IMG/VR virus record: IMGVR_UViG_3300042450_001700
Strand: one strand, 5' to 3'
Length of the DNA stretch: 64,000 nt
From: an uncultured virus (IMG/VR IMGVR_UViG_3300042450_001700)
Taxonomy: Duplodnaviria; Heunggongvirae; Uroviricota; Caudoviricetes
In this document: positions 26,735-54,876 of the stretch, piece by piece
How positions within the stretch are numbered: position 1 is the stretch's first letter
Layout of the letters: each line of letters begins with the position of its first letter
The notes under the pieces: model-generated
What the model was told of the DNA's origin: nothing
The model's database searches: none
Seen by the model: the letters and a program-made list of their open reading frames with translations, nothing else
Program-made: the position numbers and the translations under genes

Positions 26735-26800
26735 AAAAGGAATATCAAACAATCCGCTTTATTGAATTGACATGTGTAGTCGATGGGACTATCTTGATGG
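26735..26800 (+). promoter_or_regulatory. Class I promoter with operator
   Basis: TTGACA(26767)-N17-TATCTT(26790). Confidence 0.8.
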
Positions 26801-27197
26801 GGGTAAGGCAATACATCCGAAACGAACCGGCGCAACCGGGGGTCAAGGCGGGGGGACAACCGTAGCAAAAGGGTTCCAACAAGCACCAAGGTCAACGGCC
26901 CGCTAGTGGACATCAGACACTCAGCAGGGATACGGCAACGCATCCCCAACGCAAGCCAGCACGCATTAGCGGGAACACGAGTCTTGATGGCAGAAGCAAC
27001 GCACGAGCAATCTTGCATCGTTGAGAAACGAACAGACAAGAGGTTCAATCGTGACGTAAGAGCTACCGAAAGTAGTTCTGAATGTGAGGCGTGCCTGAGT
27101 TCGTGGATTGCGCATCTAGTAGCAAAAGCGCAGTAAGGGGTTTGGTGAATCAAACTTGTTGGAACCGGATTACGGTCCCCCCGCCCTTTTCGGTTTT
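26801..27197 (+). ncRNA. Structured ncRNA candidate B (~395 nt)
   Basis: Perfect long-range stems 26847-26857/27175-27185 and 26872-26883/27155-27166; many GNRA-type hairpins; U-rich 3' end. Confidence 0.75.
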
Positions 27198-27648: not shown

Positions 27649-27807
27649 TGGGTGATGGTAGTTGGTGTCGGGTGTTGGGGGATAGCGTTGTCGGGTTTTG
27701 GGGGTCGAAAAGAAATCTGAAGAAATATCCTATTTGGACTTGCGGGCTGTAGTCGTATCGACTATCTTGATGGGGGTAAGGCAATTCACAACAAAGGAGC
27801 AAGGCAC

Positions 27808-28038
27808 ATGGGAATCGAAATCGAAGTACGGAACGGAATGGTCATCGAAGTTGATGAAGACTTCAACACAGAGTCCAATGACATAACCGTATGGGTGCTG
27901 GAAGTCGAAGTATTCGACCCTCAAGCGTCACCATGCTTTTCAAGCATCACCGAATACGGTGTCTTTGAGACATCCGCTGAGGCTGAGGCTGACGCACCTG
28001 AAGATGCGAAGCTTTACGAGGCGGAGGTGACAGCGTAA
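27808..28038 (+). CDS. Acidic hypothetical protein
   Basis: Class I promoter at 27740-27768, AAGGAG SD; paralog at 48690. Confidence 0.7.
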   Translation: MGIEIEVRNGMVIEVDEDFNTESNDITVWVLEVEVFDPQASPCFSSITEYGVFETSAEAEADAPEDAKLYEAEVTA

Positions 28039-29632: not shown

Positions 29633-29822
29633 CTTTTCCAAAAAGTTATCCACAGGTTTTTCCACAGAGTTATCCACAGAACACCTGTTCGACGAACATT
29701 TGTTCGGAAAAGTTGTCCACAGGTTGTCCACAGGTTGTCCACAGCTTTATCCACAGAAAAGTTTTCCACAGGTTTTCCACAGGCAAAAGTTATCCACAGT
29801 TTGTCCACAGGTTTATCCCCAA
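29633..29822 (+). repeat. DnaA-box array with LexA-like boxes (left)
   Basis: TTATCCACA x4, TTGTCCACA x4 and TTTTCCACA x3, co-oriented at ~11-12 bp spacing; GAAC-N4-GTTC at 29679 and 29694. Confidence 0.85.
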
Positions 29823-29825
29823 CCT

Positions 29826-30602
29826 TGTTCGCTGTTCTCGGCTCGTGGTCGGCGCTCGTGGTCGGCTCTCGCTCTCTTGTTCTCGGCTCGTTCTCGGCTC
29901 TCGCTCTCGCTCTCATGTGGCTCTCATGTTGTGGCAATAGGTGAGACAGTAGGCGCGCGCTATCGGCTCTCTCTGTTCGCTCTCGTTCGTGTGGTCGGCG
30001 CGCTCTCGGCTCTCTCGTTCGTGCCGCTCGTGTTCGCTCTCGGCTCGTGGTCGGCTCTCTCTGTTCGTGGTTCGTTCGTGCCGCTCTCGCTCGTTCTCTT
30101 GGCTCGTGTTCGTGTGCGGCTCGTGGTCGGCTCTCTCTGTTCGTGGTTCGTTCGTGCCGCTCTCGCTCGTTCTCTTGGCTCGTGTTCGTGTGCCGCTCGT
30201 GGTCGGCTCTCGTGTTCGTGTGGCTCGTTCGCTCGTGTGGCTCGTGTGCCGCTCGTGTGGCTCTCTCTCGGCTCTCGTGTGCCGCTCTCGTGGCCCAGCA
30301 GCGCGTGCCGCTCTCGGCTCGTGGTTCGTGTGGCTCTCGTTCGTGTTCGTTCGCTCTCGTGGCTCTCGTGGCGCTCTCGTTCGTGGTCGGCGCTCATGGC
30401 TCTCTCGTGTGTTCTCTGTTCGCTCTCGGCTCTCGCTCTCGTGTGGCGCTCTCTCGCTCGTTCTCGTGGCTCGTGGTCGGCTCTCGTTGGCTCTCGCTCG
30501 TGGTGCCGCTCTCGTTCTCTCTCGTGGCTCGTGGCTCTCGCTCATGGCACTCACCCAGCAGCTCGTGCCGCTCGTGCCGCTCGTGCCGCTCGTTCTCGTT
30601 CT
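29826..30602. repeat. Adenine-free low-complexity tract 1
   Basis: Mosaic of GCTCTC/GCTCGTG/GTTC/GCC/GGTCG units. Confidence 0.9.
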
Positions 30603-30605
30603 CCC

Positions 30606-30646
30606 CAAAAACTAGAACGAGAGCCGACCGTTTTGGTCGGCTCTCG
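30606..30646 (-). terminator. Cassette terminator
   Basis: GAGAGCCGACC-AAAAC-GGTCGGCTCTC hairpin then GTTCTAGTTTTT; repeated at ~31641-31682, 32686-32728 and 33646-33684. Confidence 0.75.
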
Positions 30647-30657
30647 TTCTCGGCTCG

Positions 30658-30984
30658 TCAGTCCTTGAATATTGCTTTTAGCTCGGCAGTGATTGCCCGC
30701 TGAAGCGCTGGAATTTCGCGCACAAGAGCGTTGTACGTTTTCGGCTCAACCGCCAAAGTGTGAGTGCCAACACCTTGAGCGTTGAGAGTGCGAACCCACT
30801 TAGGCGTTCCGGCGTATCCTTCGTCAGTTGTGATGACTTTCGTGCCGTTCTCGTTGTAACCAACGAACACCCGGCGAGGATTTCCATGTACGTTGTTTGT
30901 TGTTGTGTAGTAGCCGATCGAACGGATGTTGAGCAGTAGCTCGTGTGCGGTCATTTGGTTGGCGAGTACTTCGTGGATTGCCAT
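30658..30984 (-). CDS. Cassette gene 1, hypothetical (108 aa)
   Basis: Normal-complexity ORF between the conserved leader and terminator. Confidence 0.75.
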   Translation of the reverse strand: MAIHEVLANQMTAHELLLNIRSIGYYTTTNNVHGNPRRVFVGYNENGTKVITTDEGYAGTPKWVRTLNAQGVGTHTLAVEPKTYNALVREIPALQRAITAELKAIFKD

Positions 30985-31172
30985 GATTTTTCTCTCATTC
31001 CCGAGCGGCTCGTGCCGCTCGTGTTGTTGGTGTGACTACATTCAACCAAAGATTGGAACAGAACGCAATAGCAAAACACCAGATTCTTTTTCTGACAGCG
31101 ATTTAGCCGCTAGAACTAGGGGGTTTTGCCCCAAAAGAAATATTTTGGAATCGCTCCAAAACGGTCGTTTTG
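30985..31172 (-). promoter_or_regulatory. Conserved ~185-bp cassette upstream block (4 copies)
   Basis: Homologous to 31961-32146, 33022-33208 and 33999-34180; includes TTGCGT, GTAGTCACACCAACAACACGAG and a hairpin before GAGAG. Confidence 0.75.
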
Positions 31173-31635
31173 GCGCTCTCGGCTCATGTTGCTCTCGGCT
31201 CTCGTGGTGCCGCTCATGTTGCTCTCGTGCCGCTCTCGCTCTCGGCTCTCGCTTGCCGCTCATGGCGCTCTCGTGTGGTCGGCGCTCGTGGCTCTCGGCT
31301 CGTGGTCGGCGCTCTCACCCAGCAGCGCTCTCGCGCGCTCTCGTGGCTCGTGGTCGGCGCTCGGCTCATGGTCGGCTCGTGCCGCTCTCACCCAGCGCTC
31401 GTGTGGCGCTCGTGTGGTGCCGCTCTCGGCTCGTTCTCTCTCGTGGTCGGCTCTCGTGCCGCTCGTGCCGCTCGTGGCGCTCTCGTGGCTCGTGGTGCCG
31501 CTCTCTCGGCTCTCGGCTCGTGTGCTTGCTCTCGCTCTCTCTCGTGCCGCTCTCGGCTCGTGTGGTGCCGCTCGTGGCTCATGCCGCTCTCGGCTCTCGC
31601 CCAGTCTTGTGTGGCGCTCGTGGCGCTCTCTCGTT
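31173..31635. repeat. Adenine-free low-complexity tract 2
   Basis: Same unit vocabulary as tract 1. Confidence 0.9.
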
Positions 31636-31693
31636 GGATCCAAAAACTAGAACGAGAGCCGACCGTTTTGGTCGGCTCTCGCTCTCGCTCGTT

Positions 31694-31960
31694 CTAGCCT
31701 AGTTGATCCTCTCGTTTTGGCAGTAGTTGGAGTTCTTCCCGATCTCCGGCGAGAGCGTCACAACATTCGCACAAGTTGCGGCTGAATGATCCCGAGAACC
31801 AATCCGAAGCCGGAACCAGATCAAAATCCTTGCTTAGTTCTTCGATCCCTTTTTGGCATGCAATCGAATCGGCTTCGCTCATTCCCGAGTCATCGCCATC
31901 AGCGATCATTTGGAGGCAGTTGAGGCAAACTCGGATGGTGATGATGTCTGACAGCTTCAT
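31694..31960 (-). CDS. Cassette gene 2, acidic Zn-binding-like (88 aa)
   Basis: VCLNC...FS...CECC...GDR motif. Confidence 0.75.
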   Translation of the reverse strand: MKLSDIITIRVCLNCLQMIADGDDSGMSEADSIACQKGIEELSKDFDLVPASDWFSGSFSRNLCECCDALAGDREELQLLPKREDQLG

Positions 31961-32146
31961 TTTTTTCTCTCATTCCCGAGCGGCTCGTGCCGCTCGTGTT
32001 GTTGGTGTGACTACATCAAAGCAAACATTTTGACTATACGCAATAGCAAAATGCGAGATTCTTTTTCTGACCGGGGTTTTGCCGCTAGTTCTAGGGGTTT
32101 TCACGCCAAAAGAAATATTTTGGAATACGTCCAAAACGGACGTTTT

Positions 32147-32685
32147 GCCGCTCTCGGCTCTCTTGTGCCGCTCGTGTTCTCGTGGTTCTCGCTCTCTCGT
32201 TCTCTCGGCTCGTGTGGCGCTCGTGTGGTCGGCTCATGGCGCTCTCGCTCGTGGTTCGTCCTAGTGCCGCTCTCGTGGCTCGTGGCGCTCGTGTGTGGCT
32301 CTCTCGTGGTTCTCGTGGCGCTCTCGTGTGGCGCTCGTTCTCATGCCGCTCTCGTGGCTCTCGTGTGGCTCGTGGTTCGTGCCGCTCGTGGTTCTCGGCT
32401 CTCACCCAGCAGCGCGCTCGTGTGGCTCGTGTGGTGCCGCTCGTGTTCGTTCGTGGTTCGTGGTCGGCGCTCGTGTTCTCTGTTCGCTCTCGTGGCTCGT
32501 GTGGCGCTCTCGTGGCGCTCATGGTGCCGCTCTCGTTCGTGGTCGGCTCATGTGGCTCTCTCGTGGCTCGTGGTTGCTCGTTCGTGGTTGCTCTCGGCTC
32601 ATGGCGCTCTCGTGTTCGTTCGTGCCGCTCTCGGCTCTCTCGTGGCTCTCACCCAGCGCTCGTGGTGCCGCTCTCGGCTCGTGCC
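32147..32685. repeat. Adenine-free low-complexity tract 3
   Basis: Same unit vocabulary. Confidence 0.9.
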
Positions 32686-32736
32686 AAAAACGGCAACAAG
32701 CGCCGACCGTTTTGGTCGGCGCTCGTTGCTCGTTTT

Positions 32737-33021
32737 CTAGAACGCTTGGAACAGAATCCCGTCGCAAAATTCGACTGCAAAAGTCATATCGTTGAGAGCG
32801 TCAAGCGAGTCGAAATTTTCGCCGTAGTTCTCGTTGATCTCTTCCAAGTCTGCCGCAAACATCCATTCTTGATCGAATGCGATTGGATCGAATTCAACCC
32901 CTTGGCCTTCTTCTTCTGCCGCTTCGATAAGCTCAAACAGTGCGTAGGATGCGTTGATCGGCCAGTTGCAAAGTGTGCGCATTGTTTGGGCAAACGTGCA
33001 GGCTGTCAGTAGTTCGTACAT
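32737..33021 (-). CDS. Cassette gene 3, very acidic protein (94 aa)
   Basis: SYALFELIE...EFDPIAFDQEW...LDALNDMT; D/E-rich. Confidence 0.75.
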   Translation of the reverse strand: MYELLTACTFAQTMRTLCNWPINASYALFELIEAAEEEGQGVEFDPIAFDQEWMFAADLEEINENYGENFDSLDALNDMTFAVEFCDGILFQAF

Positions 33022-33208
33022 TTTCTTTTCTCATTTCCCGAGCAGTTGGTGCCGCTCGTGTTGTTGGTGTGACTACATCAAAGCAAAGATTTGAAAGATA
33101 CGCAATAGCAAAACACGAGATTCTTTTTTCGACCGGGGTTTTCGCCCTAGAACTAGCGGGTTTTGCACCAAAAGAAATATTTTGGAATCGCTCCAAAACG
33201 GCAGTTTT

Positions 33209-33645
33209 CGCGCTCTCGCTCGTTCTCTCGTGTTGCTCGTTCTCGGCTCTCGGCTCATGGTTCTCTCGGCTCTCGTGTGGTGCCGCTCTCGCTCTCGGCT
33301 CTCGCTCTCGGCTCGTGTGCCGCTCTCGCCCAGCAGCGCGCTCGTGTGCCGCTCTCGTGTGGTTCGTGGTCGGCTCTCGGCTCTCGCTCATGGTTGCTCT
33401 CGTGTGCCGCTCGTGTTCGTGGCAGATACCCAGCGGCGCGTGCCGCTCTCGTGGCTCGTGTTTGCTCTCGGCTCATGCCGCTCTCGTGGTTGCTCTCTCG
33501 TGGCTCTCTCGGCTCGTGGTTGCTCTCTCGCTCGTGCCGCTCATGGTCGGCTCGTGGTGCCGCTCTCGGCTCTCGTGGTCGGCTCTCGTGCCGCTCTCGT
33601 TCTCGTGGCTCTCCCAGCCGCTCGTGGCGCTCGTGTGGCGCTCGC
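33209..33645. repeat. Adenine-free low-complexity tract 4
   Basis: Same unit vocabulary. Confidence 0.9.
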
Positions 33646-33698
33646 AAAAACGAGAATGAGCGCCGACCTTTTTGGTCGGCGCTCGTGGCTCGTGTGGT

Positions 33699-33998
33699 TC
33701 AGTCGTATTCAACCTCACCCCATTGATTTGTTCGTGAATGACAGAACTCTTCAACATAGTAAGAGTTGAGATCAACGTATTTTGGTGCCGCTTCAGCCGC
33801 TTCAGCCGCTTCAGCGATTTCCATGACTAGCGCCCTAGTCGAAACTGACGGAACCGATTTGCCGCCAGCGTTTTTGGCGATTTCAGTCCACTCAGAATCG
33901 GTCAAGTACTCGGGGTTTTTGCCGATAGTGGCGATTTCTGTCGCCATCTTCTTAGCAAGCTTTGCCCGATTTGCTAGGTGTGCCGGATGTGCTTTCAT
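33699..33998 (-). CDS. Cassette gene 4, HPxHL-family copy 3
   Basis: MKAHPAHLANR...W..IA..AG...PS..T. Confidence 0.75.
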   Translation of the reverse strand: MKAHPAHLANRAKLAKKMATEIATIGKNPEYLTDSEWTEIAKNAGGKSVPSVSTRALVMEIAEAAEAAEAAPKYVDLNSYYVEEFCHSRTNQWGEVEYD

Positions 33999-34180
33999 TC
34001 TGCTCTCTCTTCCCGAGCCGCTCGGCTCGTGTTGTTGGTGTGACTACATCAAAGCAAAGATTCCACACATAAGCAATAGCAAAATGCGAGATTCTTTTTG
34101 GAACAGCGGTTTTACCCCTAGAACTAGGGGGTTTTGCACCAAAAGAAATCTTTTGGAATCAGCCCAAAACGGTCGTTTTG

Positions 34181-34528
34181 GCTCTCGGCTCGCTCTCTCA
34201 TGGTCGGCTCTCGGCTCGTGTTCTCATGGCTCTCTCATGGCGCTCTCATGGTTCTCTCTCTCTTGTGCCGCTCTCGCTCTCTCATGCCGCTCTCGTGGTC
34301 GGCTCGTGGCTCGTGGCGCTCTCTCTTGCTCTCGGCTCTCGTGTGGCGCTCTCGTGGCTCGTGTGGTTGCTCTCTGTTCTCGTGGCGCTCTCTGTTCTCT
34401 CTCGGCTCGTGTTCTCTCTCTCATGGCGCGCTCGTTCTCGTGGTCGGCTCGTGGTCGGCTCGTGGTTGCTCTCGCTCTCTCGCTCTCGGCTCTCTCATGG
34501 TCGGCTCGTGTGGCGCTCTCGGCTCATG
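34181..34528. repeat. Adenine-free low-complexity tract 5
   Basis: Same unit vocabulary. Confidence 0.9.
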
Positions 34529-34614
34529 CAAAACATCTGCCGAACTCGTGACAGAAAACCGCCACTAGCGCGCGCGGTCGATTCCAAAACGACCAACACG
34601 AAAACGCCCGCGAG

Positions 34615-34846
34615 TTATCCCCAACCACACCAACCAGACGAGCCAAAAACAGCCAAAAGTTTTCCACAGGTTTTCCACAGGTTTTCCACAACTTTTTCCA
34701 CAGAACACCCGTTCCCCAAACGAATGTTCGATCAAAGTTATCCACAAGTTATCCACAGGTTTATCCACAGAACACCTGTTCGATCCGGTTATCCCCAGAG
34801 TTATCCACAGGTTTATCCACAGGTTTATCCACAGCCTGTGGATAAC
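34615..34846 (+). repeat. DnaA-box array with LexA-like boxes (right)
   Basis: TTATCCACA x6 plus one inverted copy (34837), TTTTCCACA x4; GAAC-N4-GTTC at 34703 and 34770. Confidence 0.85.
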
Positions 34847-35068
34847 CCAGCCCAGCCCAGCCCAGCCCCAAGCGGGCGGCGGCGGGCGGGCGGCAGCGGC
34901 GGCCCAGCCAGCGCGAGTTTTCCGGGCGGCGGGCGGCGGCGGCCAGCGCGAATTTCCGGGCGGGTGGGCGGCCCAGTCCGGCCCAGTCCGGCCCCGGATA
35001 AACGGCGGCCCAGCCAGCGCGAGTTTTCTAGGGGGCGGCGGGGCGGCGGGCCAGCGCGAATTTTCTAA
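34847..35068. repeat. GC-rich repeat block
   Basis: CCCAG tandem repeats, GGGC/GGC runs and four CCAGCGCGA(G/A)TTT units. Confidence 0.8.
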
Positions 35069-35074
35069 TTCGGA

Positions 35075-41973: not shown

Positions 41974-42103
41974 GCCAAATGGGTATGGCGGAGGTGTCTT
42001 AGAAGAGTCGGGCGAGTACTAATCGTCCGGCTTCTTCGCGTATTGGGCTACCGACCCCATGAGTGTTTTGGACCCGGTAGCGGCAAGTGTACCAGATGGG
42101 TGT

Positions 42104-42466
42104 TCAGATTTCTTTCTCCACATAAACCACTCTGCCGTCAATGATGACGATGCCTTCTGGCAATATCGCATGATCCAGTATCGCCCCACGCAGATCAGCT
42201 CCGAATAGGCTTGCTCCGAATAGGTGTGCGTTCGTGAGGTTCGCTCTGCGTAGGTCGGCTCTGCGTAGGTCGGCGTTATGCAGGTTTGCGCAGATGAGGT
42301 CGGCTCCGATGAGGTTCGATCCGAATAGGTCGGCGTTTGTCAGGTTCGCTCCGAACAGAACGGCTCCCATTAGGTTTGTGTCGGATAGGTCTGCCCCGTA
42401 GAGGTTCACTCCGGTTAGGTCGGCTCGTTCCATGTTGCGGACTTCGTGTCCGATGATTGTGGTCAT
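42104..42466 (-). CDS. Pentapeptide repeat protein
   Basis: A(D/N)Lxx repeats throughout. Confidence 0.9.
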   Translation of the reverse strand: MTTIIGHEVRNMERADLTGVNLYGADLSDTNLMGAVLFGANLTNADLFGSNLIGADLICANLHNADLRRADLRRANLTNAHLFGASLFGADLRGAILDHAILPEGIVIIDGRVVYVEKEI

Positions 42467-42555
42467 CCTTCGACCCATATTCTCCAGCAGAGCATTCCTA
42501 CGCTTGCGATGTTTCCTACGATTGCGATTGCTATGTGAATCTCGGTCTGTGTCAT
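42463..42555 (-). CDS. Small single-TM peptide (30 aa, leaderless)
   Basis: TTGATT-N16-TATACT-N6-ATG; MTQTEIHIAIAIVGNIASVGMLCWRIWVEG. Confidence 0.6.
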   Translation of the reverse strand: MTQTEIHIAIAIVGNIASVGMLCWRIWVEG

Positions 42556-42656
42556 ACCCCTAGTATAGTCATATGAACTACAGAATCAAGTCAATATCAA
42601 ACAAATATCAAGATTTCTTTCAGCACCAAACACCACACAACGGCTACCCTAAACAT

Positions 42657-44228
42657 GTGGAACCACTCGTAGTAATCCCATCGGAACTACTTGCACTCGC
42701 AACAGACCACGAACGCGAGCAATACCGCCTATACCTAATCGACGCAGCAGTCACCACCGACGACTGGGAAACATGGCTACTCGGAATGGCCCCCGGCTAC
42801 GCATCAGCCCCATTCGGTGACCACCACAAACAATTCTGGAACTGGGCATGGGAAGTAGAAACAGGTGAACGACCCCGACCGTTCGTCGCTATCTGGCCCC
42901 GAGGCGGCGCAAAGAGTACCAGCGCCGAGATGTGCGTCGTCGCTCTCGGCGCACGACAGAAACGCCACTACTGCCTATACGTCAGCGAAACACAAGATCA
43001 GGCAGACGACCACGTTGCCAACATCGCATCACTACTCGAAGACACCGAAATCGGATTCGCATACCCCGAACTAGGCGAACGAATGATGGGTAAGTTCGGA
43101 TCAGCAAAAGGTTGGCGGCGCAACCGAATCCGAACCGGAACCGGGTTCACCGTTGACGCTGTAGGACTTGACTCAGCATCACGAGGCATCAAACTCGAAA
43201 ACCTGCGACCCGACCTAATGGTCTTCGATGACATCGACAGCGAATCCGACGGGCCATCAGCCACAGACAAAAAGATCCGAACCATCACCCGCAAACTTCT
43301 CCCAGCGGGATCAAACGCTTGCGCTGTTATCGCCATCCAGAACAAGGTCCACGACAACTCCATCTTCGCACGACTCGCAGACGGACGAGCAGACTTTCTC
43401 CGTGACCGAATTGTGTCCGGGCCAATCCCATCAGTATGGAACCTTGAATGGGTAGAACAAGAAGGCTTGTTCAACATCGTCACAGGGCAAGCGGCATGGG
43501 AAGGCCAGCCACTCGAATCGTCACAAGCGCTCCTCAACGACATCGGACTAACAGCGTTCCTCGCAGAGTGCCAACACGCGACAGTCACGATGACCGGCGG
43601 GATGTTCGACCACATCAACTGGCCGAACCTTCATGTCACCGAAGCAGAACTACCAGTTATGAAACGCGTAGTCGTCTGGTTGGACCCTGCTGTCACCTCA
43701 AACGACCAATCAGACTGCCAAGGCATCCAATGCGATGGGCTGGGTTCCGACGGTTTGATCTACCGTCTTTGGTCATGGGAGGGGCGCACCACACCACTTG
43801 ACGCTGTGATGCGTGGAATCAGAATCGCTCTTCAATGGAACGCCGACACGCTCGGAGTTGAATCCGACCAAGGCGGCGATACATGGCAAACGGTTTACCA
43901 TCAGGCTTGCGAGAACTTGCGTGACGCAGGGGAACTTGAAGGATCAGCACCACGGTTCGCTTCAGCGAAAGCAGGCGCAGGGCATGGATCGAAGATGGCT
44001 CGTGCGCAACGGATGCTTGTCGATTACGAACGGAACCAGATCAGGCATCTCCTTGGCACACACCAAGTGTTAGAACTTGGACTCATGCGTTTCCCTAAGA
44101 TCAAACCATACGATCTTGTTGACGCAGCGTACTGGGCGTGGGCGGACATCTCGAAGAAGACGAACAGGTCGAAGTCTCGTATCGGGTCTGCGGCTAACTC
44201 AACTATCGGTGCGTTCAACTTCAACTAA
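42657..44228 (+). CDS. terL: Terminase large subunit
   Basis: WPRGGAKST Walker A, RPDLMVFDDID Walker B, WLDPA and DLVDA nuclease motifs; probable leaderless GTG 42657. Confidence 0.9.
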   Translation: MEPLVVIPSELLALATDHEREQYRLYLIDAAVTTDDWETWLLGMAPGYASAPFGDHHKQFWNWAWEVETGERPRPFVAIWPRGGAKSTSAEMCVVALGARQKRHYCLYVSETQDQADDHVANIASLLEDTEIGFAYPELGERMMGKFGSAKGWRRNRIRTGTGFTVDAVGLDSASRGIKLENLRPDLMVFDDIDSESDGPSATDKKIRTITRKLLPAGSNACAVIAIQNKVHDNSIFARLADGRADFLRDRIVSGPIPSVWNLEWVEQEGLFNIVTGQAAWEGQPLESSQALLNDIGLTAFLAECQHATVTMTGGMFDHINWPNLHVTEAELPVMKRVVVWLDPAVTSNDQSDCQGIQCDGLGSDGLIYRLWSWEGRTTPLDAVMRGIRIALQWNADTLGVESDQGGDTWQTVYHQACENLRDAGELEGSAPRFASAKAGAGHGSKMARAQRMLVDYERNQIRHLLGTHQVLELGLMRFPKIKPYDLVDAAYWAWADISKKTNRSKSRIGSAANSTIGAFNFN

Positions 44229-44263
44229 AAATGCAAGAAGCCCCTCCGTTGTGGAGGGGCTGA
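44227..44263 (-). terminator. Intrinsic terminator between terL and ncRNA C
   Basis: AGCCCCTCC-N5-GGAGGGGCT hairpin followed by TCTTGCATTTT on the minus strand. Confidence 0.75.
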
Positions 44264-45007
44264 AGCCATCTTGCTGACTAACCGAGAAGGCAATACGTCC
44301 TTCTGTCGGCATCGGTTGATACCGCCAAATTTTTGCACCATTGGGGGTGCCTGCAACCGCCCTTGCAGGTGGGTTCCTATCTTCTGTCACCCGAGGTCTA
44401 CAACCCTTGGAACACCGGAAGATTCGTTCAGCGGCGGGACTTTGTTTCAGGCGATATTCCCTGTGCTGCTTTTTGCCTGTACTGCTTGTTGATCGCAGAA
44501 CCGTTGAGTTAGCAGGAAGAGCGGCGGGAGAGATGCACCAACAACGCGCCCATCTTCGCTTCACATCAGAAGCTCGTTACCTAGCCGGGAGGGGAGAGAT
44601 GCACCAACAACGCTCCACCGGGTAGGGAATGGCTAACTGGCGGGAAGTATATCTTCCCGCTAACTCAACGGTCCTACGAATCAAGTTCTTAGAAGATGCT
44701 CTTGGACCGGCTACTTGCTTTCGTTCTTACTACTCCACGGATTGTGCGCACGCACCGCTTCACCTCAGAACTAGTTGCTTTCACCGTTCTCCGCATTCAC
44801 TCGCGCTATGTCAACATCCATCCACCACCTTCATAAGCACATCTCTGTGTGCCGTAGGGCGCTTCACTTGGCGATCAGCCCGGTACTTCTGCGGTTCCAA
44901 GTTCATCATCTAAGAACTTGATTCCTGTACTTGAGAGTCTTTGGTGTGCGGACCCTAGCCGCCATGCTCCCCGGTCGTTCCGGTTCTTTAGGTTGTATTG
45001 CCTTACC
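44229..45007 (-). ncRNA. Large structured ncRNA candidate C (~780 nt)
   Basis: Promoter TTGACA-N17-TATCTT at 45014-45042; 5'/3' stem 44995-45004/44287-44296; perfect 16-bp stem 44678-44693/44909-44924; stem 44498-44520/44652-44674. Confidence 0.75.
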
Positions 45008-45077
45008 CCCATAAAGATAGTCGATGCGACTACACATGTCAAGTCAATAATCAAGATTGTTTGATATTTCTTTTCGG

Positions 45078-45981
45078 CACCAACCCCAGCCTTCACGACT
45101 GGCACTGAATGACTGGTCAAGCTCCATTGGATGCCACACGCCCATTTCACCGTCAAGCTCAACGGTCCGGTAGGTCAACTTCCGGTGTGGACTCACCCTT
45201 CTGCTCTCCGCCAGTCGGCGGTGTTGCTCAAACTGCACCTGCTTTCTCTAGTTGGAATGATCTAAACGAATGTGTGGGGAATCCGGTTTTCCGGGCTACA
45301 GTCCAGCGGCGGTCTCTCCCTTGCGCACGACACGCGGGCTAGGTGCTTGTCTGCGGAATACCGGCCTAACCGGACTCCCCTTGAATCTTGAGTTGACGCT
45401 TGGATCGTTTGGGAGTGACCCGACGAACTCCGCATATCTCATCAAGATTCAGTACTTGACCGTTTCGCAATGAACAGCATTTCTGCTGTCGCCTAATGGC
45501 CGTCCGGTCAAGATCGCTTGGCATTGAATGCCTTATAGGTTACTCACGCTCCGGGTAATTAGTCCGTTTGATTAGCGTAGGGCGGTATGGATCGGTGTCA
45601 GCTAAAGACTTCAGTGTTTATCACCCTTCCAGTTTCGATCCGCAGCGTTCGAGGAGAACTCGTAAACCCCGGAACCATCTTGGTTTCCGCACTGTCGTAG
45701 CTGCTGTTCAGGTACCTAACTCAGGTTCCTACTGCCAGTCGCCGCTGCCGACAGTTTCCGACTTGCGGACATCTGCTGAACTTTGACTGGTGCTGCTAAT
45801 TGCGTGAGCGACCTATAAGACGCTCATTGCTTTCTTGAGAGCTAAGAGTCTGTTGAAGGTTTGTCACGTTGTTACCGGTTTGGAATGTCCCGTTCTTTGC
45901 GTGGGGGCCTTGCTGATCTCTTAGCCGCTCAAGCTTGTCTCTGTTTTCAAGTTGCTGTTGTGAGGCTGTTGCTCCCCCACA
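45078..45981 (-). ncRNA. Large structured ncRNA candidate D (~900 nt)
   Basis: Promoter TTGCGG-N17-TACTGT at 45988-46016; 5' TGTGTGGGG pairs with 45271-45279; many internal stems; no credible ORF. Confidence 0.65.
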
Positions 45982-46047
45982 CACAAGACAGTAGTCGATA
46001 CGACTACAGTCCGCAAGTCGAAACAGAAGATTGTTTGATATTTCTTT

Positions 46048-46599
46048 TGGTTGGTCAGTGAAACCGATGTTCTGAATAAGAGCTGCAAGTTTCTATCCCT
46101 GTGACGCAACATCGGGCTGCCTTGCTCCCCGACCGAATACGCTTCGGTGATTACGCTCTTGACGACGCTTTCACTTGACTCTGTGTGCCTGTCTGTCTCC
46201 AGACGATTCCACTGACCAACCACTCAAGTTGCTGCGGAGGTGCCGTACTAGGGATGTGTTGGGAGAGCAAGGCTTACGTCTTTCGACTACTTGGTCACCT
46301 CAATCGTCTTGGGTCCGATACCGCAAGTTTCAACTTGAGTCATTCTAGTTACTGTTGAGGAAGCCGTACTGAGGATGTCTTAGGAGAGGAAGGCTTACAC
46401 CCGAGGGCTACTTCTTGCACTTCAATCGTCTTCTGGTATCAAACAGAATCTAACTAGCACTCGCTGTTTCTGTTGCTGAGTGTGCAACCGTCACATTTCC
46501 TTGAGGTGGTGTGTCACCCGGAATCCGCTACACGCTTTGTGCGTCTTGCTGCGATTCGCCCCCGGTTGTGTCTCCGGTTCGTACTGCTCACTTCCTTAT
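46048..46599 (-). ncRNA. Large structured ncRNA candidate E (~550 nt)
   Basis: Class II promoter at 46607-46629; duplicated ~77-nt domain; stem GGTTGGTCAGTG/CACTGACCAACC at the 3' end. Confidence 0.7.
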
Positions 46600-46746
46600 G
46601 TAGATAAAGATACTACAGGTGTCTGACATTATGCGAATCCAAATGGTGTGACTCTTGTCACACGCCAAATCGGAGCCGCCAGCACACCCAGCCGACACGC
46701 GACAAAGGGACCGGAGCTACCCGGTCCCCTCATCACCAACAACAAC

Positions 46747-47736
46747 TCACAAGCCGTTACGAGCAGACTCAGCGAACACCGCCTGAGTCACCTTCTGGTC
46801 ATCAAGGTCAATCGCACCCGACAGGAAGTCAGTCATCGTGCGACCAAGACGAGAAGTTGAACCAGCAGTACCGTTCGCACGGAACGGACGCTCGTGCTGA
46901 CGGTAGGTGTTGAACGCCTGCACAACTCCCCATCCGGTTCCACGGAAGTCACCGACACGCTCATCGTTGCGATAGATGTTGGACACCGACTCCACACGGT
47001 TCTCCCAACGAGTACGAGCAGCCTCGGTTGCGGACTCAGGTGGCATCGGAGCCAAGCGGTTCACGATCCGGTAGAACTCGGTGTCGGTCACCGAAAGGTT
47101 GATTAGCGTGTTGACTTCCTCGTTGAACGACTCAGCCTGCTTCCACATCAGACCGAGAGTGTTGCGAGCGGTCGTGAAGTTCATCGACGAGTTGAGCGTG
47201 TGACGCAACTTGAACACGTTGTCGCTTTTGCGTCGGAGAGCGCCGATCTGGTTTGAGCAGATGAAGCGGAACATTCCCATCCGGTATGAAGTCGCAAGCG
47301 AACCATCGTGCGAGGATGCGAGTGTGAGTGTTGGTGCAACGTCACCCTCACCGGCTTCCAAGCATGGTGCCTGAACCTGAACCCATCCGACCGCACCGTT
47401 CTTCAGCAGGCCCGCACCCGAAACCTGAAGGTCGGTGTCGGACGCATCCAAGAGTGTGAACAGGTTGTCCACGAGTACGTCGCTGAACTGGTGAAGTCCG
47501 TGTGACTTGGACACCGTGTTGAGAACCATGCCCGTGTCGGTTCGGCGGATGGCTTGCTTGTTCTCAAGCGCCACCATCGAATCGGAACCCGAGTCGTGTG
47601 TGTAGAGCGGGGTGTACTCCACAGTGAAGTTGAACAGGTCACGCACCCGCTCAAACGGAACAGGTCCGGCGTGCTTCTCGTTTGCGTGGACGCTTCCACC
47701 ATTGCCGAGGATTGTGATGTCTGTGTTGTTTGCCAT
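46747..47736 (-). CDS. DUF932 family protein
   Basis: AGLLKNG, LASSHDGS, RFICSNQ and RHT motifs; GT.WG..QA...Y..H. Confidence 0.85.
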   Translation of the reverse strand: MANNTDITILGNGGSVHANEKHAGPVPFERVRDLFNFTVEYTPLYTHDSGSDSMVALENKQAIRRTDTGMVLNTVSKSHGLHQFSDVLVDNLFTLLDASDTDLQVSGAGLLKNGAVGWVQVQAPCLEAGEGDVAPTLTLASSHDGSLATSYRMGMFRFICSNQIGALRRKSDNVFKLRHTLNSSMNFTTARNTLGLMWKQAESFNEEVNTLINLSVTDTEFYRIVNRLAPMPPESATEAARTRWENRVESVSNIYRNDERVGDFRGTGWGVVQAFNTYRQHERPFRANGTAGSTSRLGRTMTDFLSGAIDLDDQKVTQAVFAESARNGL

Positions 47737-52640: not shown

Positions 52641-53312
52641 TTGGAGGTTGTTGTGTCGAATGTTGTTCCGCAGTTGCAGGGGTTGTGTGTTCCTGTTGAG
52701 GGGTTGAGAACGATGACTGGTAATCCGCGTCGGGGTGATGTGGATGCGGTGATGCGTTCGTTGGATGCTTTTGGTCAGCGGAAACCGATTGTTGCTCGTG
52801 AGAGTACGGGCGAGGTGATCGCTGGGAACCATACGTTTATGGCGGCGGTGAAGTTGGGTTGGTCTGAGATTGCGGTTGTGTGGGTTGATGATGATGATGC
52901 GACGGCTAAGGCGTTTGCGTTGGCTGATAATCGGACTGCCGAGTTGGGTGGTTATGATGATGAGTTGTTGGCGGGGATGATCGCTGAGGTGATGTCTGCT
53001 GACTTGGGGTTGTTGGCTGCGGCTTCGTATACGGCTGACGATTTGGATGCGTTGTTGGCGGATACTTTGCCTGTTGAGGAGTTGCCGGTTCCTGAGACTC
53101 GTAAGGCCCCGGTGAAGTTGGCTGAACGGTTTGTTGGTTTGCCTGTGAGTGTGTTGAACAGTCGTGAGGGTTGGTGGCAGGATCGGAAACGGGCGTGGAC
53201 TGATCTTGGGATTGAGTCTGAGTTGGGTCGTGATGGTAAACCGTTGACTTGGAATGTTGCTGTGCCGCAGGGTCACGGCCATCAGGCGACGGATATGGTG
53301 CAAAATGGTTGA
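52641..53312 (+). CDS. ParB/Srx domain protein carrying the N-terminal segment of a DNA methyltransferase
   Basis: NPRRG...IAGNHT...LADNRTAE; ends with LAERF..P.SVL..R.GWWQDRKRAW..LGI.SELGR. Confidence 0.8.
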   Translation: MEVVVSNVVPQLQGLCVPVEGLRTMTGNPRRGDVDAVMRSLDAFGQRKPIVARESTGEVIAGNHTFMAAVKLGWSEIAVVWVDDDDATAKAFALADNRTAELGGYDDELLAGMIAEVMSADLGLLAAASYTADDLDALLADTLPVEELPVPETRKAPVKLAERFVGLPVSVLNSREGWWQDRKRAWTDLGIESELGRDGKPLTWNVAVPQGHGHQATDMVQNG

Positions 53313-54876
53313 ACCTGTTGTTGAGGTTGAGGGTTACGGTGAGGGTTCAACTTCTTTGTTTGACCCGGTTTTGTGTGAACTGGTTTATAGGTGGTTTTGT
53401 CCACCGGGCGGTCAGGTGTTGGACCCGTTCGCCGGGGGTTCTGTTCGTGGGGTTGTTGCGTCGAAGTTGGGTCGGGAGTACACGGGGATTGACGTTCGCC
53501 CGGAGCAGGTTGAGGCGAACAGGTTGCAGGGTGAAAGGCTTTGCCGCGGGTTGTCGTTTGTGCCGGATGTCCCTGAGGATCACATGCCTGAGCTGACACC
53601 GGTTGAAACTCATGGTGACATCTGGTTGAAACGTGAGGATCATTATGTTTTTGGTGGGGTGAGGGGTGCGAAAGTTCGGACTTGTATGCTTCTGGTTGAG
53701 CGTGCGCGTGAACAAGGGGTTGGGGTTGTCACGGCTGGGTCACGGCAGTCGCCGCAGGTGAACTTTGTGGCTCAGATTGCAGCGGCGTTGGGTGTGAAGT
53801 GTCGGGCGCATGTGCCTTCTGGCGATTTGACACCGGAGCTTCTTGCGGCTCGTGGCGCTGGTTGCGAGTTGATTCAACATCAGGCGGGGTATAACACGGT
53901 GATCGTTGCGCGTGCGCGTGAGGATGCGTTGCAGTCTGGTTGGGTTGAGATTCCGTATGGGATGGAAGCGCCGGAGGCGGTTGAGTTTACGAAACCGCAG
54001 GTTGCGAATATCCCTGACGGGGTTCAGCGGATTGTGAACAGTGTCGGGTCAGGAATGACTCTTGCGGGCATCCTGTGGGGTCTAGTTGAGTCGGGGAGGG
54101 ATATTCCGGTAGTTGGTGTGTGTGTCGGTCATCCGCCGTTAGAACGCCTTGAGAGGCACGCACCACCGGGTTGGCAGGAAATGGTGACGATTGTGGACCA
54201 CCCGTCCGATTACCACGACGAGGCAGCGGTGACTGTGTTCCGTGGGGTGCAGTTGGACCCGTGGTACGAGGCGAAGTGCATTCCGACTTTGGAACCGGGT
54301 GACTTGTTATGGGTGAGCGCTATCCGACCGTCAGTTGTTCTCGCCGCAGCACCGTTACCCCAGTGGGTTGAGGGTGACGCTTCAGAGGTGGGCGAGTTGT
54401 GTCAAGGTTTAGAAGCCGATTTGTGGTTTTCTTGTCCGCCTTATGGTGATCTTGAAGTGTACTCGGATGATCCGCGTGATCTTTCAACGATGGATTACTC
54501 AACTTTTATTGAGTCATTCCGACAGATTGTTGATACGTCAACAAAACTGTTGAAGGACGACAGGTTCGCTGTTGTTGTTGTCGGTGACTTCCGTGGCCCC
54601 GACGGGAACTACCGCAACTTTGTTTCAGATACGATCAGCGCTTTCCAAGACGCAGGACTCAGCTTGTATAACGAGGCGATCCTTGTAACGAATCTTGCTT
54701 CACTGATTCTGCGTGTCGGTAAACAGTTTGATGTGTCCCGCAAGATGGGCAAGTCGCATCAGAATGTTCTTGTGTTCTTGAAGGGTGACGCACGCGCAGC
54801 GACACGCGCTTGCGGTCCGGTGCAGGCCGGTGATCTGACGGCTGAGGCCACGGAAAGCGTCCAACCGGAATCGTAG
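53305..54876 (+). CDS. DNA methyltransferase with inserted PLP-dependent (fold type II) domain
   Basis: TSLFDPVLCE...VLDPFAGGSVRG; insert LTPVE...LKRED...GAKVR...VGSGMTLAGI...DPWYEAK; then FSCPPY...K.HQNVLVF.KG. Confidence 0.85.
   Translation: MVEPVVEVEGYGEGSTSLFDPVLCELVYRWFCPPGGQVLDPFAGGSVRGVVASKLGREYTGIDVRPEQVEANRLQGERLCRGLSFVPDVPEDHMPELTPVETHGDIWLKREDHYVFGGVRGAKVRTCMLLVERAREQGVGVVTAGSRQSPQVNFVAQIAAALGVKCRAHVPSGDLTPELLAARGAGCELIQHQAGYNTVIVARAREDALQSGWVEIPYGMEAPEAVEFTKPQVANIPDGVQRIVNSVGSGMTLAGILWGLVESGRDIPVVGVCVGHPPLERLERHAPPGWQEMVTIVDHPSDYHDEAAVTVFRGVQLDPWYEAKCIPTLEPGDLLWVSAIRPSVVLAAAPLPQWVEGDASEVGELCQGLEADLWFSCPPYGDLEVYSDDPRDLSTMDYSTFIESFRQIVDTSTKLLKDDRFAVVVVGDFRGPDGNYRNFVSDTISAFQDAGLSLYNEAILVTNLASLILRVGKQFDVSRKMGKSHQNVLVFLKGDARAATRACGPVQAGDLTAEATESVQPES

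Follow-up and report, generated by a model that had tools for sequence, protein, structure and literature searches.

In a 64,000-nucleotide (nt) stretch of DNA from an uncultured virus (IMG/VR record IMGVR_UViG_3300042450_001700), referred to here as the window, a large non-coding RNA that we call RNA C is encoded on the minus strand. We find that RNA C consists of a conserved core and exchangeable peripheral modules, one of which is a domain that displays the same loop sequence at the tips of two neighboring hairpins. The repeat itself is real; the main interest lies in the modular RNA that surrounds it. The domain is dispensable for the core, and the second loop arose in the window lineage, where ~22 nt of the apex of hairpin 1 were copied, by internal duplication or gene conversion, onto a GGCG/CGCC stem that already existed. 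With regard to function, our leading hypothesis, which we hold tentatively, is that the module acts in trans by base-pairing with the mRNAs of four small gene cassettes located elsewhere in the window.

The structured nature of RNA C is supported both by its predicted fold, at -299.5 kcal/mol (z -6.1; none of 20 shuffles was equally stable), and by an alignment of seven homologues with 162 consensus pairs, 16 of which still pair despite changes on both sides. Core helix I1 is invariant and paired in all seven. The gene lies in a 2.5-kb gap between the genes for the terminase large subunit and a DUF932 protein; this gap is without a convincing open reading frame (ORF), the only one of at least 100 amino acids (aa) being a single GTG frame at 44199-44564, and carries three promoter-plus-RNA units on the minus strand, the last of which is RNA C. 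Judging from the promoter, RNA C probably starts near 45007, and the T and A runs on both sides of its terminator suggest that this is used two-way. Searches of the whole window against Rfam gave no match at the gathering score, and only sR28 noise was seen over 42000-47000 at E-values up to 10. ARAGORN predicted no tRNA or tmRNA genes in the 64 kb, and blastn with the 2.6-kb gap found no match among phage GenBank records.

A first-pass annotation of this DNA, made from the letters and their ORFs, had described a loop of ~20 nt presented twice, and an exact 20-mer in two minus-strand copies bears this out: CGUUGUUGGUGCAUCUCUCC occurs exactly twice in RNA C, at 44612-44593 and 44546-44527. Its DNA form, CGTTGTTGGTGCATCTCTCC, has these two sites only (44527-44546 and 44593-44612, both minus strand), and no further site with up to three mismatches exists in the 64-kb window, where shuffles expect 0.01. 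The full repeat (family D3) measures 25 nt with one mismatch, at a spacing of 66 nt. The stem closures named in the annotation were right for copy 2, which is directly flanked by GGCG (44550-44547) and CGCC (44526-44523), but less so for copy 1: here GGAG (44616-44613) stands before the repeat and C-CUCC after it, so that a GGAG/CUCC closure needs either a 1-nt offset or the CUCC inside the repeat. In the predicted fold of hairpin 1, GGAG indeed pairs with the repeat-internal CUCC, and what remains folds into an irregular stem capped by a UGGU tetraloop; in predicted hairpin 2, the 3' part CAUCUCU can alternatively pair with an upstream GAAGAUG. The 20-mer thus caps both hairpins, as had been claimed, but as a loop it is not open in either minimum-free-energy or ensemble folds, which pair it into the irregular hairpin just described. 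The mean unpaired probability of the loop 10-mer GUUGUUGGUG is 0.52 in hairpin 1 and 0.62 in hairpin 2, compared to 0.40 for RNA C overall.

Both hairpins sit within the optional domain, closed by helix I2, in which one pair differs at both positions, being U-A in the window but C-G in the relatives L013 and L040. Folded in isolation, the domain reaches -89.4 kcal/mol (z -7.25), and none of 200 shuffles was equally stable. It does not take the position of a put-like leader, directly behind a promoter, but begins ~330 nt past the inferred start of RNA C, inside a stand-alone RNA. BLAST of the 2.6-kb region against the collected relative loci found no copy of the domain outside RNA C, and the 22-mer of its linker occurs once per contig. 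We considered, and rejected, a mobile insertion resembling a miniature inverted-repeat transposable element: inverted 28-nt arms with 89% complementarity are present, but the domain is single-copy, and any stem-closed RNA domain has such arms.

Relatives were found via the DUF932 protein, via words from core and linker, and through one metagenome scan, which added one contig, L040. Only four viral contigs have the twin form, and wherever these align to the region they match the window without a difference. In L013 (94% identity over 2.6 kb) and L040 the domain is present, with the loop on hairpin 1 only and with one change, A13 to U; their hairpin 2 carries, on the same GGCG base, short apices that differ from each other and are unrelated to the loop. 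L014 and L017 have an unrelated stem-closed module (~235 nt by our own count) at the site of the domain, and L018 and L032 have no insert; the domain is absent or swapped in four of the six non-identical relatives. One RNA-library contig likewise joins 44484 to 44677, skipping 192 nt. As relatives exist without the domain, or with a different module in its place, we conclude that it is not needed by the core. Comparable insertions and deletions are found among relatives at other hairpin tips of RNA C, and overall, phages with 86-98% identity in the neighboring gene differ in whether a module is found, missing, exchanged for another or duplicated internally. Scans with the linker 22-mer and with a stem-anchored gapped pattern (5 of whose 15 loci were true and 10 unrelated chance matches) recovered known lineages and no additional domain variants.

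Some further features of these modules should be mentioned. RNA A, another RNA of the window, contains a tandem module of ~51 nt, duplicated at 46242-46292 and 46363-46413 (family D2, 76% identity, 121-nt spacing). The RNA C of L017 has an additional 5' module that by eye resembles it; if the two do match, modules would move between different RNAs. The alternative module of L014 and L017 shares GGUGCAU with the loop region, a 7-mer with seven occurrences in the window.

The two different stem bases had been taken in the first-pass annotation for covariation, that is, for a compensatory change within one molecule. This does not hold: because the GGCG base of hairpin 2 is already present in relatives without the second loop (L013 and L040), and hence predates it, the twin is a lineage-specific copy. 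The A13 of the window is found in both of its loop copies, while copy 1 of L013 and L040 has U at this position; since copy 2 thus carries the window-specific base, the identity of the twins is either recent or maintained by conversion. Conservation of the loop along with its stems, which the annotation had proposed as a check, differs between the hairpins: hairpin 1 is kept in L013 and L040 apart from the A13-to-U change, whereas in hairpin 2 the stem base is kept and the loop is lost.

One explanation of such a history would be a neutral event, in which an unconstrained, fast-evolving tip of hairpin 2 was overwritten by the apex of hairpin 1 in one lineage, by template switch or gene conversion, leaving a functionless twin whose 10-nt complement to the cassettes is due to chance. 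In favor of this, hairpin 2 differs in all three domain-bearing lineages (window, L013 and L040), the entire domain is dispensable, and module duplication recurs in these RNAs, as in the tandem D2 module of RNA A. On the other hand, the twin form is identical and stable in the four viral contigs, and all sampled words of RNA C occur in 12 DNA runs of 2020-2024 (with 3 more runs containing 0.93-0.99 of them), although many of these may be the source population; furthermore, the copy leaves the older stem base exactly in place, so that there is still a folded hairpin. We consider the neutral event a possibility, but a rather doubtful one.

Two direct repeats at 66-nt spacing could also be read as a mini-CRISPR array or as an RNA decoy with CRISPR repeats, with two units of ~25 nt around a 41-nt spacer. 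We regard this as extremely improbable: L013 and L040 have no second repeat, the whole unit lies inside a closed RNA domain, and the 19-mer of the loop complement gave five single scattered hits (L055-L059) among the genomes of 185,579 species, none of them in an array. These hits are in unrelated genomes and their number is about that estimated for a random 19-mer, and a long host target was rejected on the same grounds.

The proposed partners of the loop are four cassettes of ~1 kb on the minus strand (block 29850-34560, cassettes 30658-33998), in each of which a promoter-like region and an invariant leader with a 5' hairpin are followed by a small ORF and a strong terminator; no Pfam family was found for the four ORFs (108, 88, 94 and 99 aa). 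The leaders contain CACCAACAAC within the first 12 nt after the probable start, unpaired in all four and just upstream of both the 5' hairpin, whose sequence varies among cassettes, and the ribosome-binding site. We suggest that GUUGUUGGUG at the hairpin tips may pair with this single-stranded, CA-rich 5'-terminal segment of the four mRNAs. Pairing at a site just upstream of the conserved 5' hairpin and the ribosome-binding site would then lower translation or stability of the cassette mRNAs, and with the second loop copy, RNA C might bind with higher avidity or capture two transcripts at once. RNase III might cut at the long closing helix and so release the module as an RNA of ~150-190 nt. 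We rank antisense pairing first because it is the sole reading with a specific and accessible partner, and because the closing helix is long enough for RNase III; nonetheless, we see it as possible rather than probable.

Several observations are in line with antisense pairing. The 10-nt complement between GUUGUUGGUG and CACCAACAAC is exact in all four leaders, once per cassette, as the first-pass annotation had stated, although the example given there (31024-31033) is off by one, the actual start being 31023. CACCAACAAC is kept in 14 of 14 leaders from five viral contigs, found with a search pattern that required flanking promoter words and thus made only close relatives visible. Opening the leader target costs 0.05-0.53 kcal/mol, and the 10-bp duplex is worth -13.9 kcal/mol versus 4.0-5.6 kcal/mol to open the loop; by these calculated energies, loop-leader pairing would be feasible but modest. 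The only substitution in loop 1 among three lineages lies outside the 10-mer. Moreover, the lineages that have both the loop and enough flanking DNA, namely the window and G002, both carry cassettes, while G006 (67.5 kb) and G003 (53 kb), which are without the loop and belong to the insert-less L032 type and the alternative-module L017 type, respectively, have no cassettes or arrays in their assembled parts (83% and 66% complete, respectively). Both of these contigs break at ~39490 (window position), however, so that the absence of cassettes is not established there, and we take the co-absence of loop and cassettes as only suggestive. This break, common to two independent relatives, falls within the region of the helicase gene and may mark a genome end, a repeat or a hypervariable boundary.

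A considerable number of results weigh against antisense pairing. The annotation had itself allowed that the 10-nt match could be chance in a CAA-rich genome, and our counts agree with that caution: for 69 of the 775 10-mers of RNA C, three different loop 10-mers among them, the same strand of the window contains an exact complement at another place, and other parts of RNA C have complements of up to 14 nt to other loci. CAACAAC-like words are abundant, with 43 one-mismatch sites versus 6.6 expected. When the whole 20-mer is used, the leader duplexes (-16.5 to -20.0 kcal/mol) rank between 180 and 951 among 25,588 windows (mean -10.2, standard deviation 3.2 kcal/mol). The best same-strand duplex matches are T-free arrays between the cassettes, a composition effect; specific complementarity of the loop to these arrays was rejected, as their scores come from GAGAG and GCACCA words only and no 8-mer or longer word of the loop complement recurs. 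The exact sites of CACCAACAAC in the window, eight versus 0.19 expected, would seem to speak for specificity, but this comparison overstates the case, because the cassette sites are four paralogs, the loops are one sequence in duplicate and the two remaining sites are background-like. Of the latter, one (37848) lies in coding sequence and the other (46734), in the 3' untranslated region of the DUF932 gene, is kept only in L014 among six relatives; both were set aside as background. The complementarity is thus no stronger than chance allows. These same chance statistics (43 versus 6.6 sites, 69 of 775 10-mers, the duplex ranks) also count in favor of the neutral event.

Also against antisense pairing, the loop is predicted to be partly self-paired, with an opening cost between the 25th percentile and the median of windows in the domain. 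When the domain was co-folded with each of the leaders, the binding energy came out as 0, but this value carries no information, as the method does not allow a strand to pair with the loop of a closed hairpin. Relatives that have the same cassettes get by with a single loop copy. The invariant core of the leader, GTAGTCACACCAACAACACGAGC, is 23 nt and thus longer than the complement, and it overlaps or abuts the probable -10 and start region; since promoter function can explain an invariant core at this position, conservation of the leader needs no pairing. Finally, with the 10-mer invariant in three lineages and the leader in 14 of 14 copies, loop and target offer no covariation. Of the antisense or guide loop that the annotation had put forward, the structured non-coding RNA, the exact complement and the accessible leader target stand, whereas a match beyond chance is not supported.

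The predicted fold of the repeat can also be read in terms of protein docking. The irregular hairpin (GGAG / C.G.U-UGU-UGGU-GCA-U.C.U / CUCC) would then bind a phage or host RNA-binding protein, the doubled hairpin would form a dimer site or a stronger decoy, and the complement in the cassettes would be coincidental. The 20-mer does fold as a stem with small symmetric internal loops rather than being open, hairpin 1 is kept in all three domain-bearing lineages, and the element is part of an accessory module on a large scaffold RNA. However, no candidate protein was found, there are only two copies, in one lineage, and A13-to-U breaks a predicted hairpin pair in L013 and L040, leaving us skeptical of docking while not discounting it.

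The base at position 13 bears on another mechanism, in which the quasi-palindrome GGUGCAUC would let the loops kiss, either within one RNA C or between molecules that are thereby linked into dimers or chains. The self-duplex of the window loop (8 bp) has -11.7 kcal/mol, versus -4.8 for the U13 loop of L013 and L040; the palindrome-making A13 and the duplication occur in one and the same lineage; and ROOL and GOLLD, two large RNA families, assemble via kissing loops according to PMC12286853. Yet a value of -11.7 kcal/mol is also attained by 20.4% of 500 shuffled loops, and the palindrome, which L013 and L040 do not share, overlaps the predicted pairing within the loop. Kissing loops are therefore quite unlikely in our view.

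Alternatively, CACCAACAAC might be read on double-stranded DNA by a phage or host protein, for example as an operator at +1 of the cassette promoters, with the copies in the RNA C gene acting as extra sites 66 bp apart. The eight exact sites against 0.19 expected, the invariance of the cassette motif next to the probable -10 and start region, and the arrays of DnaA-box-like words that flank the cassette block would all fit a DNA site, but two of the eight sites are background-like (37848, coding; 46734, in one of six relatives), the motif is without dyad symmetry, and such a role gives no reason for sites placed exactly at RNA hairpin tips. We thus believe a DNA-level role to be very unlikely.

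Returning to antisense pairing, one may go further and picture RNA C as a scaffold of a new class with exchangeable plug-in modules, in which the twin-loop module would be a trans guide that seizes the 5' ends of the four cassette mRNAs, possibly after being freed by RNase III, and in which the window lineage would have doubled the guide and simultaneously gained the self-complementary GGUGCAUC, through which molecules could be joined. Taken as a whole this is an unlikely picture; if true, it would mean that phage lineages re-programme one large RNA by swapping or duplicating modules, much as proteins swap domains. Should the pairing alone be real, RNA C would be one of few cases in phages where a large scaffold RNA carries a guide sequence. 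If it is not, RNA C shows how easily short complementarities originate in a genome rich in CAA, and how one hairpin can overwrite the tip of the next.

Features of RNA C, its optional domain, the flanking genes and the cassette leaders, with positions in the window
Feature	Position	Strand	Remark
RNA C, ~780-nt structured non-coding RNA	44228..45007	-	ends inferred from promoter and terminator
Upstream element AAAGAAATATCAAACAATCTT of RNA C promoter	45053..45073	-	promoter family with 5 sites in the window
RNA C promoter, sigma-70-like, TTGACA-17-TATCTT	45014..45042	-	10/12 consensus positions
RNA C intrinsic terminator (predicted)	44239..44261	-	9-pair stem, then T-run; just beyond the stop of the terminase large-subunit gene
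Core helix I1, 5' arm	44891..44924	-	34-nt arms, 85% complementary
Core helix I1, 3' arm	44678..44711	-	optional domain starts directly after
Optional (insertable) domain with both loop copies	44485..44676	-	~190 nt; presence/absence among relatives
Closing helix I2, 5' arm	44652..44679	-	28-nt arms, 89% complementary
Closing helix I2, 3' arm	44493..44520	-	pairs with 44652-44679
Hairpin 1, CCGG-U-GGAG ... CUCC-CCGG	44585..44621	-	loop copy 1 at 44593-44612
Hairpin 2, GGCG ... CGCC	44523..44550	-	loop copy 2 at 44527-44546
Terminase large-subunit gene	42573-44228	+	phrog_38, E 4.6e-47; convergent to RNA C
DUF932 gene	46747-47736	-	
CACCAACAAC, cassette 1 leader	31023..31032	-	108-aa ORF, 30658-30984
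CACCAACAAC, cassette 2 leader	31998..32007	-	88-aa ORF, 31694-31960
CACCAACAAC, cassette 3 leader	33060..33069	-	94-aa ORF, 32737-33021
CACCAACAAC, cassette 4 leader	34031..34040	-	99-aa ORF, 33699-33998

The window derives from a tailed phage and encodes a terminase large subunit (phrog_38), a portal, a major head protein and a DnaB-like helicase. The stretch is present in DNA runs labelled lake water, and a 25.6-kb virus record (G001) has 100% identity to it over the RNA C region. Contigs from RNA libraries (runs X16-X19) contain relatives of RNAs A, B and C, with a coverage that excludes 44505-44605; these contigs extend through promoter sequence and the DUF932 gene, and are thus no proof of transcript ends or of expression of the twin form.

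The promoter element AAAGAAATATCAAACAATCTT (21 nt) marks five promoters on both strands of the window, at 12247-, 26736+, 45053-, 46027- and 48246+, when up to three mismatches are allowed; none would be expected. Two types of promoter and 5' end accompany the RNA C core among relatives when window positions 45008-45045 are compared: the window, L018 and L032 have a palindromic promoter spacer and an RNA C that starts with GGGGGTAAGG, and L013, L014, L017 and L040 have TATACT and a start near ACACAAGCAAGC. At 26736-27195 (+) there is a candidate for a fourth stand-alone RNA of ~395 nt. Like RNA C, it has an element of the AAAGAAATATCAAACAATCTT type and begins with GGGGGTAAGGCAATACA; its promoter is similar and contains a hairpin in the spacer, its 3' end is formed by a GC hairpin and T-run that resemble a terminator, and its fold z is -4.76. 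At 27709-27810 (+), the same promoter and 5' start (GTAGTCGTATCGACTATCTT ... GGGGGTAAGGCAATTCA) drive an mRNA that codes for a protein and has a ribosome-binding site, with an ATG near 27809, so that one promoter class serves both RNA genes and mRNAs.

Around the cassettes, a word related to AAAGAAATATCAAACAATCTT, AAAGAAATAT, stands upstream of every cassette promoter. Low-complexity arrays between the cassettes, made up of words like CACGAG, CCGAGAG and GCGGCA, are T-free on the minus strand for up to 334 nt. The DnaA-box-like arrays on either side of the block (29646-29790 and 34660-34837) hold 10 copies of TTATCCACA and 7 of TTTTCCACA on the plus strand, with one inverted copy, and a GC-rich segment with GGGCTG and GCCGCC repeats lies at 34850-35070. 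Read on the plus strand, the leader hairpins together with TGTTGTTGGT (31002-31021, 31977-31996 and 34014-34029) have a terminator-like score, so that CACCAACAAC might in addition complement a weak tail of transcripts made in the antisense direction. Elsewhere in the window, 53254-54876 (+) encodes a 540-aa protein with a DNA-methylase segment and a pyridoxal-phosphate-dependent enzyme domain, and a 124-aa pentapeptide-repeat protein (42104-42478, -) adjoins the terminase gene.

Among known systems that display a short complement in a hairpin loop, the closest is the c4 antisense RNA of phage P1, for which PMC8201110 describes a role in ant control. As with c4, RNA C is proposed to silence genes of the same phage through a hairpin-loop complement to an mRNA leader. 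c4 is a 77-nt RNA that derives from the same transcript as its target, and presents two different loops to two adjacent target sites; its specificity was reportedly proven by compensatory differences between P1 and P7. The mechanism by which such loops display short complementary segments for pairing with the mRNA leader was reportedly worked out by Citron and Schuster in 1990. Unlike those of c4, the loops of RNA C are identical, reside in an RNA of ~780 nt located ~10 kb from its targets, and come without compensatory change.

Short self- or cross-complementary loops that join RNA molecules are known from the HIV-1 dimerisation initiation site and from the pRNA of phi29. The window loop is like these in carrying the self-complementary GGUGCAUC, but differs in that the motif is not conserved in relatives and is matched by ~20% of shuffles.

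As a large phage RNA, RNA C is best compared to GOLLD and ROOL, which, together with OLE, were the only such phage RNAs returned by a non-exhaustive search of full-text literature. GOLLD and ROOL are large ornate RNAs encoded by phages and prophages, and their function is still unknown; PMC12286853 describes a 'variable linker' with little similarity across homologues, and kissing loops that are central to assembly. RNA C resembles them in being phage-encoded, several hundred nt in length and densely structured, with a conserved core and a freely variable region, but this is a resemblance in kind only. Because RNA C fails the covariance models of these families and has no tRNA genes nearby, while GOLLD and ROOL are frequent neighbors of tRNA islands, it is not a member of either. 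Its variable part, too, is of another sort, namely a discrete, stem-closed module that some relatives have, others lack and still others replace. RNA C thus represents a family unrelated in sequence to GOLLD and ROOL, whose core accepts discrete stem-closed modules, which makes these modules experimentally separable.

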